A stretch of DNA of 64,000 nt, taken from NCBI RefSeq assembly GCF_038025025.1, contig NW_027117339.1, forward strand, positions 1,364,001 through 1,428,000, given 5' to 3'. The translations under genes were made by a program, and so were the position numbers. Source of the stretch: Phyllosticta citribraziliensis (taxonomy: Eukaryota). The notes under the pieces were generated by a model that did no database searches, had not been told where the DNA came from, and saw only the letters and a program-made list of their open reading frames with translations. This document shows, piece by piece, positions 41,083 to 42,473 of the stretch (positions within the stretch are counted from its first letter, which is position 1; every line of letters begins with the position of its first letter).

Positions 41083-42473
41083 TCACAGCCTCGACTTCAC
41101 CTTCCTGGTCAGGTTCCTACAAAGCATGGTCAGCACACGTCACGACAGCCTGGGGGTTTCTCAATCGACTTACTGAATACCACTCACCTCTCGCGAGCGA
41201 AGGACTTGGCCGGCTCCGGCTTGTTGTCGAGAATCTTTTCAATCTCCTCCTGAACTTCGGGGGTGAGCTTGTCTAGAAGCTTCAAAGCACCAACATTCTC
41301 GATGATCTGCTGAGGCTTGGATGCTCCAAGAATGACGGTGCTAACGTTCTTGTTCTTGGCGCACCACGCGAGAGCCAGCTGGCTGACCGAACCACCGAGC
41401 CTATCGGCGACGGCGGTGAGCTTCCTGACCTTTTCAATCTTGGCCTGGCCCTCGGGCGACTTGAGCTCCTTGACGGTGTTTTCAAAGAAAGCCTTGTTCT
41501 GGGCAAAGCGAGAGTCCTCGGGGACACCATCGTTGTACTTGCCGGTCAAGAGACCCGAGGCGAGAGGACTCCAGATGGTGGTTCCGTACTGGAACTGCTC
41601 GAAAACGGGCGCGTACTCGACCTCGAAGCGCTCGCGGTGGAAGGCGTTGTATTGCGGCTGCTCGACGACTGGGGCGATCAGGTTGTACTTTTCGGCAATC
41701 AAAGTCGCCTCAGTGATCTGAGTGGCGCTCCATTCCGAGGTACCCCAGTAGTAAGCCAGGTTCAGGTTGCGGATGACTTGGGTGAAGCCCTCGACAATCT
41801 CCTTCATGGGAGTGCTAACAAGACGTCAGTGGCGAAGGTCAAAGTGGGTCTGAACAACGTACCCAACATCAGGACGGTGGGCAAAGACAATGTCGACGTA
41901 AGGCGTCTGGAGACGCTCCAAGCAGCTCTTGAGACCTTCAACGACGTGCTTGCGAGATAGACCACGGGTGTTCGGCTCCTTCCTGCCGGTGCCGAAGAAG
42001 ACCTTGCACAAAAGTTAGAGCAGGGTTTGGGGAGGATGCGGGACAGAATATACATACCTTGGTGGACAGGACGTACTCGTCCCTCGGCCAGTCGAGCTCC
42101 TTGAAAGCGTTGCCCATCTCAATCTCACACTGGCCGTTGGAGTAGACCTCTGCGGTATCAAAAAAGTTGATGCCGTGGTCCCAAGCGGTTTGCATGCAGT
42201 CCTTGACGATGTTGCCCTTCTGGGTGCCACCGTAGGTGACTGCGAGCTGTCAGCATCCCAATTGATTGCAGGCAGGCGTGGCGACTTACGCCATCCTCCA
42301 AGGCTCAGAACAGAGACCTTGAGACCAGTAGGTCCCAGGTACTTGAAGGTCATGTCCTTGGGGTCGAAAGCGGAGCGGACTGCCATTGTTGCTGCTGTTC
42401 TGGATAGAGTGGGATTGAAGAGTGAGGGGATATGGGAGGAAAGAAGGAAAGGGCGCTGCAGAAGACGGGACAT
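41083..42473 (-). CDS. Aldo-keto reductase, voltage-gated K+ channel beta-subunit-like (AKR6); alternative N- and C-termini predicted
   Basis: [27 protein letters not shown] (catalytic D/Y), [39 protein letters not shown] and [13 protein letters not shown]. The unspliced stop is at 41184; the spliced PTS1 isoform ends at 41083. Confidence 0.93.

Follow-up and report, generated by a model that had tools for sequence, protein, structure and literature searches.

Peroxisomal isoforms produced by alternative splicing and carrying a cryptic peroxisomal targeting signal type 1 (PTS1) are described for GAPDH of Ustilago maydis and PGK of Aspergillus nidulans (Freitag et al. 2012, cited in PMC3798809 and PMC9549241). 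In the available part of PMC3798809 these are tabulated together with MDH of Yarrowia lipolytica, Gnd1 of Candida albicans and hydroxypyruvate reductase of pumpkin, and the available part of a 2022 review (PMC9549241) adds no aldo-keto reductase (AKR). MDH2 of Y. lipolytica is made as a cytosolic form or as a form with the PTS1 AKI by alternative splicing of its last intron, at sites 4 nt apart and in a ratio that follows the carbon source (Kabran et al. 2012, PMC3372373, in the part available), and a PTS1 derived from stop codon readthrough is reported for U. maydis PGK, Tpi1, Rpe1 and Art1 and for mammalian LDHB and MDH1 (Stiebler et al. 2014, PMC4207609, likewise in part). The present analysis concerns an AKR gene on the minus strand of a 64,000-nt stretch of DNA (the window) from contig NW_027117339.1 of Phyllosticta citribraziliensis, the last intron of which has two 5' splice sites and is probably a conserved cytosol/peroxisome switch that sends a minor isoform ending in SRL to peroxisomes. 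An earlier note on this DNA (the original prediction) had proposed such a switch and had pointed to cryptic PTS1 formation in fungal GAPDH and PGK by splicing or readthrough, a precedent confirmed in the available text of PMC3798809, PMC9549241 and PMC4207609.

The AKR gene, as read from the sequence, has four introns. All coordinates given here are positions in the window, and the elements that surround the last intron are the following:

41188..41814, minus strand: core of exon 4, common to both isoforms, of which the last two bases, AG, begin the codon of Arg349.
41187-41182, minus strand: donor 1, GTGAGT (GT at 41187-41186), with the short-form stop TGA (41186-41184) inside it; seen in the sequence and in a joint of RNA run X2.
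41173-41168, minus strand: donor 2, GTAAGT, reached 11 nt (41183-41173) past the stop; seen in the sequence and in joints of 4/4 RNA runs.
41134-41129, minus strand: branch-point-like GCTGAC with its A at 41130, 12 nt ahead of the acceptor AG; read from sequence only.
41117..41123, minus strand: acceptor TTTGTAG, common to both introns, at which both RNA joints end.
41116-41086, minus strand: mini-exon, consisting of the G that completes Arg349 and 10 codons with a PTS1-like tail; from sequence and in-silico splicing.
41085-41083, minus strand: long-form stop TGA, directly after the mini-exon.

On the minus strand the end of the exon reads ...GCT CGC GAG AG|G TGA GT, and the TGA can be seen base for base within the consensus donor GTGAGT at 41187-41182. 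The two donors are 14 nt apart and compete for the single acceptor at 41117. When the 71-nt intron that begins at donor 1 was removed by coordinates with a script, a protein of 359 residues was obtained, with a 10-residue extension and the C-terminus SRL; removal of the 57-nt intron that begins at donor 2, or retention of the intron, gave a protein of 349 residues ending in ARER. Donor 2 leaves the stop in the message, and its intron therefore falls in the 3' untranslated region. Only the long isoform carries a PTS1-like end, the PTS1 consensus being an extreme C-terminal [SAC][KRH][LM]; the SRL is preceded by Lys at positions -4 and -6 and Arg at -7, and basic residues just upstream constitute a PTS1 enhancer context. 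The coordinates, the donor, branch and acceptor motifs, the intron lengths of 71 and 57 nt, the stop within the donor and the SRL and ARER ends had all been given in the original prediction, and all agree with the sequence and with the in-silico products.

Both junctions are present in RNA. Four of 24 listed runs (X2, X3, X4 and X8) were examined in the form of Logan contigs, the runs having been picked for contig totals above the size of a fungal genome or for an RNA record; contig depths are rough, and true isoform ratios are beyond their reach. All four runs contain RNA, since upstream introns are spliced out in each of them (joints of the 50-nt intron in 4/4 runs, of the 55-nt intron in 4/4 and of the 48-nt intron in 3/4). 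The predicted junction 41173>41117, which keeps the stop, was found in 4/4 runs as the 57-nt joint 41115>41173, and in X3, X4 and X8 the contigs that carry it are long, their shorter side measuring 93 to 143 letters. The predicted junction 41187>41117, which removes the stop, was found as the 71-nt joint 41115>41187 in 1/4 runs, in one contig of X2, the deepest run, with GT..AG ends. Its depth (2216) differs from that of the contig with the 57-nt joint (13208), a ratio of about 1:6, and it therefore lies in a separate contig. In the same run the start of a 509-letter contig coincides with 41187 and the end of an 827-letter contig with 41116, as expected of an assembly graph that branches at both sites. 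The 71-nt joint was not seen in the contigs of X3, X4 and X8, which is no evidence of absence, as contigs drop rare variants and the depth of X3 and X4 is about 7.

In the proposed mechanism, the last intron would offer one acceptor (41117) to two competing 5' splice sites. Use of the downstream donor at 41173 would be the major event, in which the TGA is kept and the 349-residue ...ARER protein would stay outside peroxisomes. Use of the upstream donor at 41187 would cut the Arg codon between its second and third bases, so that the stop leaves with the intron; joining to G|AAC... would rebuild Arg, keep the frame and add 10 residues ending in SRL, for a total of 359. The minor isoform would then be imported into the peroxisomal matrix by PEX5 via its SRL, and the ratio of donor use (about 1:6 in X2) would set the share of the enzyme that is sent to peroxisomes. 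PEX5 binding, import and a peroxisomal role for the long isoform, in aldehyde/ketone reduction or in NADP(H) balance, are predictions from its sequence.

As far as the cited sources were available, the AKR resembles U. maydis GAPDH and A. nidulans PGK in having a major cytosolic form and a minor form to which alternative 3' splicing appends a PTS1, with a signal conserved among fungi; it differs from them in that the client is a Kv-beta-type AKR rather than a glycolytic enzyme, the stop lies within the 5' splice site and the AGG codon is constrained. The closest parallel in the position of the event is Y. lipolytica MDH2, where splicing of the last intron likewise decides between cytosolic and PTS1 isoforms, although MDH2 uses two 3' splice sites and a frameshift (PMC3372373, in part), whereas the AKR has two 5' splice sites 14 nt apart and keeps its frame via the rebuilt Arg codon. 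With the readthrough systems the AKR shares a cryptic PTS1 behind the stop of an abundant cytosolic oxidoreductase, of which a small share is extended. Unlike in those systems (PMC4207609, in part), readthrough of the AKR stop gives no PTS1, and the stop codon context is TGA GT, not TGA CT. Readthrough of the TGA was considered as a source of the PTS1 and rejected, the readthrough products of the unspliced and 57-nt-spliced messages ending in ...DVC and ...FRT, without a PTS1-like end. U. maydis Art1 ('aldehyde reductase') was also considered as a possible ortholog and rejected, since um03914 is described in the available text of PMC4207609 as 'related to lactaldehyde reductase', a different enzyme.

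The stop-in-donor design and its PTS1-like mini-exon are conserved among orthologs. Metagenome contigs were scanned with the last-exon alignment, by which 320 stretches were matched, 222 of them encoding relatives, and the best 80 (68-82% identity) were used. A G precedes the first in-frame stop in 64 of these 80 loci (e.g. AGG TAG GT, AGG TGA GC, AGG TAA GA), and therefore a GT straddles the last codon and the stop. Of 59 distinct loci with a ...RxR end, 38 have AGG as the last Arg codon, a codon that makes up 5.7% of the 348 Arg codons elsewhere in this exon; the last Arg codon ends in G in 46, as against 12% elsewhere (binomial p 4.5e-31, a value inflated by relatedness). The stop codon forms part of the 5' splice site, by which the last codon is constrained to AGG. 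Sufficient downstream sequence (>= 150 nt) was present for 58 of the 64 loci, representing 45 distinct groups, from which the intron was excised in silico between the straddling GT and any AG 30-320 nt past the stop, with a tail of at most 30 residues. A tail ending in x[KR]L was obtained in 25 of the 45 groups, compared to 3.9 +/- 1.9 (maximum 9) after 200 shuffles of the downstream DNA, and a tail ending in [SAC][KRH][LM] in 19, compared to 1.1 +/- 1.1 (maximum 5). The tails seen were AKL, SKL, SRL, PKL, ARL, TKL, GKL, VKL, LKL, MKL and QRL; among the groups without x[KR]L, looser criteria yielded the ends SKI (two groups), SKM, SRF and ANL, and about 14 groups have no convincing tail, many of these being placed with a Sordariales protein in a clade of poor support.

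Tandem donors 4 nt apart (AGG TAG|GTGAGT-like) are found in 6 of 31 tail-bearing groups, the first donor removing the stop and the second keeping it. The other tail-bearing groups have a single donor, often sub-consensus (GTGAGC, GTAGGC), for which the alternative is intron retention. Judging from these loci, the Phyllosticta layout, with its pair of good donors 14 nt apart, is a variant of a shared theme; of the two-donor switch originally predicted, the use of both donors in RNA stands for this gene, whereas the second donor is optional in relatives and the design is not specific to this copy. The combination of a last Arg codon AGG, a stop at donor positions +2 to +4 and a basic mini-exon ending in x[KR]L is an unusually clear signature, which could serve as a pattern for genome-wide searches after other cryptic isoforms of this kind. 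Class-level taxon labels for the metagenomic loci were considered and rejected, the nearest named protein and a quick gene tree being too weak: 40 of the 92 inner branches of the tree are open, and Dothideomycetes and Sordariomycetes interleave. Two loci are placed closely: L004 shares 95% identity with Coniosporium apollinis, and the distance between L069 and Coniochaeta hoffmannii is zero.

Database gene models show the same tail. In a protein search with the last exon, 7948 of 8000 scored candidates reached E <= 1e-40, and 120 of them were listed. The best match was a Phyllosticta cluster of 11 members, comprising three models of 359 residues, five of 349 residues (...ARER) and three fragments. 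The 359-residue models end in ...DASRKVKSKL in P. citriasiana, ...NSTRKVKPRL in P. capitalensis and SRL in P. citribraziliensis, and all three species share the tail core RKVK[SP][KR]L. The long product of the window corresponds over its full length to the stored model P0125 (359 residues) and the short product to P0126 (349 residues) of the same species; the SRL isoform is therefore already a GenBank gene model, and while the splice anatomy of the isoform originally called hidden is as predicted, it is not hidden from the databases. A PTS1-like extension is present in 4 of the 120 matches listed, namely P0002 (SKL) and three Diplodia models (...LRQAKL), and a Botryosphaeria dothidea cluster member also ends in ...LRQAKL. 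Nearly all remaining named models among the matches listed end at the conserved ...GRxR, and in the species with extended models sister models stop at R. Annotation is thus inconsistent, with 349- and 359-residue models side by side in one species and nearly all other named orthologs annotated in the short form only. The alignment of orthologous 3' ends suggested in the original prediction accordingly recovered SKL, PRL or AKL ends in Phyllosticta, Diplodia and Botryosphaeria models, besides the x[KR]L tails of 25/45 metagenomic groups.

Judging by their structure, 23 of the 80 metagenomic loci, with an intronless full-length coding region, appear to be transcript contigs. Eight of these cDNA-like contigs (L002, L011, L014, L020, L027, L029, L030 and L034) have the stop-straddling intron as their sole intron, followed by an x[KR]L mini-exon; three more keep the stop-straddling intron with SKI or SRF tails. 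L053 and L057, by contrast with the intron-keeping contigs, run from ...GRKR directly into 12-residue tails ending in SRL and SKL, in agreement with the splice predicted for the related locus L029. Retained and spliced forms therefore both exist as RNA in other fungi. A second protein search found a metagenomic cluster of 361 residues and 14 members with the same kind of tail, and also a 218-residue protein ending in AKL.

Several observations weigh against a peroxisomal switch. In 1/4 runs one short contig, whose shorter side spans 28 letters, contains the 71-nt joint, which was flagged 'between: not known'; ratios from contigs are unreliable. The PTS1 call itself is based on the consensus tripeptide and on conservation, and the basic tail could be a nuclear signal. 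After in-silico intron removal 20/45 groups are without an x[KR]L tail, the terminal tripeptide is non-canonical in several metagenomic tails (LKL, MKL, VKL, GKL, TKL, QRL), and the P. capitalensis tail ends in PRL. The 359-residue GenBank models may come from ab initio prediction and so depend on the sequence pattern themselves. As a strict CTRAY branch motif lies ahead of the chosen acceptor in no more than 11/31 groups, it is not used as support. The wrong-phase control is weak when any AG is allowed as acceptor (25 of 45 groups in the correct phase versus 21 and 19 in the others); this control is undiscriminating because some AG is usually available in every phase, and the result is clearer when acceptors are limited to YAG (22 versus 9 and 6), the YAG version and the shuffles being the more informative controls.

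Some of these points would fit splicing noise, in which donor 1 is used now and then through its likeness to the consensus and the SRL tail is an unselected by-product. The 71-nt junction is minor, and the depth of X2, above 10,000, would suffice to assemble rare mis-splicing as well. Noise would nevertheless have to account for PTS1-like tails behind the stop-straddling GT in 25/45 groups against 3.9 in shuffles, for the RKVK[SP][KR]L core kept in three Phyllosticta species and the AKL of Botryosphaeriaceae, for the strong AGG bias of the last codon and for the spliced form being the assembled transcript in L053 and L057, and it is considered unlikely. The opposite possibility, that the long SRL form is the true constitutive product and the short form an artefact of annotation or assembly, draws on the long-form GenBank models of three Phyllosticta and four Botryosphaeriaceae and on L053 and L057, which show the spliced form only; with the stop-keeping junction assembled in 4/4 runs and about six-fold deeper in X2, 349-residue models making up 5/8 of the full-length Phyllosticta cluster members, and eight cDNA-like environmental contigs keeping the intron, it appears very improbable.

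A function of the tail outside peroxisomes, as a basic nuclear or membrane-binding signal, or a role of the donors mainly in regulating mRNA fate through an intron in the 3' untranslated region, has about the same small likelihood as noise. The tails are rich in Lys and Arg, donor 2 places the intron 11 nt past the stop, and some tail tripeptides are outside the classical consensus. Set against this, the most conserved element is the terminal x[KR]L directly before the stop, not the number or spacing of basic residues, and basic residues just upstream are also what a PTS1 enhancer context would contain. AKL, PKL, SKL and SRL tails are moreover scored 'targeted' in the available parts of Table S1/S2 of PMC4207609. 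A cytosol/peroxisome switch governed by the two donors thus remains the preferred reading.

The enzyme itself was examined in relation to AKR of known structure. Its coding region upstream of the exon 4 core comprises the following:

42290..42386, minus strand: exon 1, with the annotated start ATG at 42386-42384; the intron-1 joint 42239>42290, with 50 nt skipped, is found in 4/4 RNA runs.
42289-42240, minus strand: intron 1, 50 nt.
42058..42239, minus strand: exon 2, encoding Asp and Tyr (FDTAEVY) and Lys (STK) of the AKR active site; from RNA joints and the 3lut_A alignment.
42057-42003, minus strand: intron 2, 55 nt.
41863..42002, minus strand: exon 3, encoding AHRPD; from RNA joints of the 55-nt (4/4) and 48-nt (3/4) introns and the 3lut_A alignment.
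41862-41815, minus strand: intron 3, 48 nt.

The last exon alone matches the Pfam family PF00248 (Aldo_ket_red) with an E-value of 5.1e-25, and PF00248 is present in 120/120 homologs among the matches listed. The nearest solved structures are Kv-beta2 (3lut_A, E 3.8e-98) and AKR6D1 (8hw0, E 1.1e-97), which align from residues 12/13 to 341/345; among PDB entries the first 13 matches are all Kv-beta2 or AKR6D1 (E about 1e-97), with the next AKR family at an E-value of 1e-47. In AKR nomenclature, members of the same family share over 40% identity. The gene product is, on these matches, a predicted NADPH-type AKR of the Kv-beta (AKR6) kind, and the label of Kv-beta-like AKR given originally is upheld by the PF00248 match and by Kv-beta2 as the nearest structure. 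The same barrel is shared with mammalian Kv-beta2/AKR6 (PDB 3lut, 1exb) and AKR6D1 (8hw0), and in the 3lut_A alignment Asp, Tyr and Lys are kept (FDTAEVY, T/STK), whereas the position of the Kv-beta2 Asn is occupied in the fungal AKR by the His of AHRPD. The Asp and Tyr of FDTAEVY, the Lys of STK and the His of AHRPD are presumably the catalytic tetrad. No evidence of a channel partner for the fungal AKR was found. An AlphaFold model built with 33 homologs (predicted template modelling score 0.80) is a barrel of alternating strands and helices, and the predicted local distance difference test score is below 50 for residues 346-359, the tail included, which fits a free, flexible tail beyond the modelled barrel.

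No peroxisomal form of AKR6 proteins was found in literature searches, and no fungal Kv-beta-like/AKR6 enzyme linked to peroxisomes or to this kind of splicing was found in full-text literature, although the supplement of Freitag et al. 2012 could still bear on priority. The claim that a switch on an AKR was not known to be described thus stands for the literature searched and is qualified by the existing GenBank model of the isoform. The AKR is probably a new client of a known mechanism, with a stop-in-donor variant, and would bring a new enzyme class, the Kv-beta-type AKR, into the small group of cytosolic oxidoreductases that carry a cryptic PTS1. Import, if confirmed, would suggest that carbonyls are reduced with NADPH within the peroxisomes of fungi. 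Minor isoforms that arise through splicing or readthrough are missed by gene models and by proteomics, and peroxisomal proteomes are therefore under-counted.

An upstream start codon raises the possibility of an N-terminal variant:

42387..42473, minus strand: upstream in-frame ATG (42473-42471) and 29 codons; from sequence, ortholog alignment and the reach of RNA contigs.

The 29-codon extension is rich in Ser, Thr and Leu, includes three Arg and one His and is devoid of acidic residues, and it aligns with the annotated N-termini (MSR..R to ..ATM) of Xylariales orthologs of 376-385 residues (Daldinia, Hypoxylon, Jackrogersella). RNA contigs extend past the upstream ATG in X4 (to 42488) and X8 (to 42493), and that of X3 ends at 42456. 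The upstream ATG may give rise to a mitochondrial isoform by alternative start. The cDNA-like contig L028 (open reading frame end 1232) has a presequence-like extension, with 380 residues from the first Met, and a stop-straddling intron that leads to an SKI tail; one gene may therefore carry both signals. IdpA of A. nidulans, an NADP-isocitrate dehydrogenase, is distributed to cytosol, mitochondria and peroxisomes from one gene by alternative transcription starts (PMC3798809, in the part available). The ATG at 42473 with its presequence-like 29 residues would give the AKR gene a similar three-way potential; IdpA, however, has a constitutive PTS1 and a variable N-terminus, whereas the AKR has a variable C-terminus and a possible N-terminal variant read from the sequence. 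A wider proposal, which is tentative and rated at slightly below an even chance, is that the switch is an old device of much of Pezizomycotina (Dothideomycetes and at least one Sordariomycete lineage, with loss in a Sordariales-like clade) that titrates the AKR into peroxisomes, and that an upstream in-frame AUG supplies a mitochondrial presequence in certain lineages, the present one among them, so that one gene would serve three compartments. An AKR6 enzyme would in that case be a previously unrecognised part of fungal peroxisomal aldehyde detoxification or NADP(H) balance.

Other features of the 5' region were noted. In X2 a 3026-letter contig with intron 1 spliced out extends past 42600 for over 2.6 kb in the upstream direction; it may represent an extended 5' transcript or be joined to the neighbouring gene, two possibilities that contigs cannot separate. 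Five cDNA-like contigs (L011, L034, L032, L044 and L003) have an ATG-free open frame of 21-73 codons ahead of the annotated Met, which could be due to chance or to non-AUG initiated N-terminal extensions. Such extensions have been reported in other fungal enzymes with dual targeting (cited in PMC9549241, in the part available).

The neighbouring genes, a BRO1-like match below the Pfam cut-off and a peptidase S9, are both unrelated to the AKR. In X8, which is from a related organism, none of the differences listed falls in the mini-exon, and 11 substitutions and four indels lie just downstream; 23 more differences are unlisted, and no claim is drawn. In five metagenomic loci (L063, L074, L075, L077 and L080) the frame stops right after ...NKP, ten codons earlier than usual, and a GT straddles the stop in three of the five; no PTS1-like tail was found behind the ...NKP stop in L077, the sole one of these three with enough downstream sequence. 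Six database models (P0011, P0051, P0087, P0114, P0159 and P0197) end in ...GR[EQ]RL, one residue past the usual stop. ERL is also the end of the readthrough tail of U. maydis Art1, which directed GFP to peroxisomes despite a predictor score of -16.7 (PMC4207609, in the part available).

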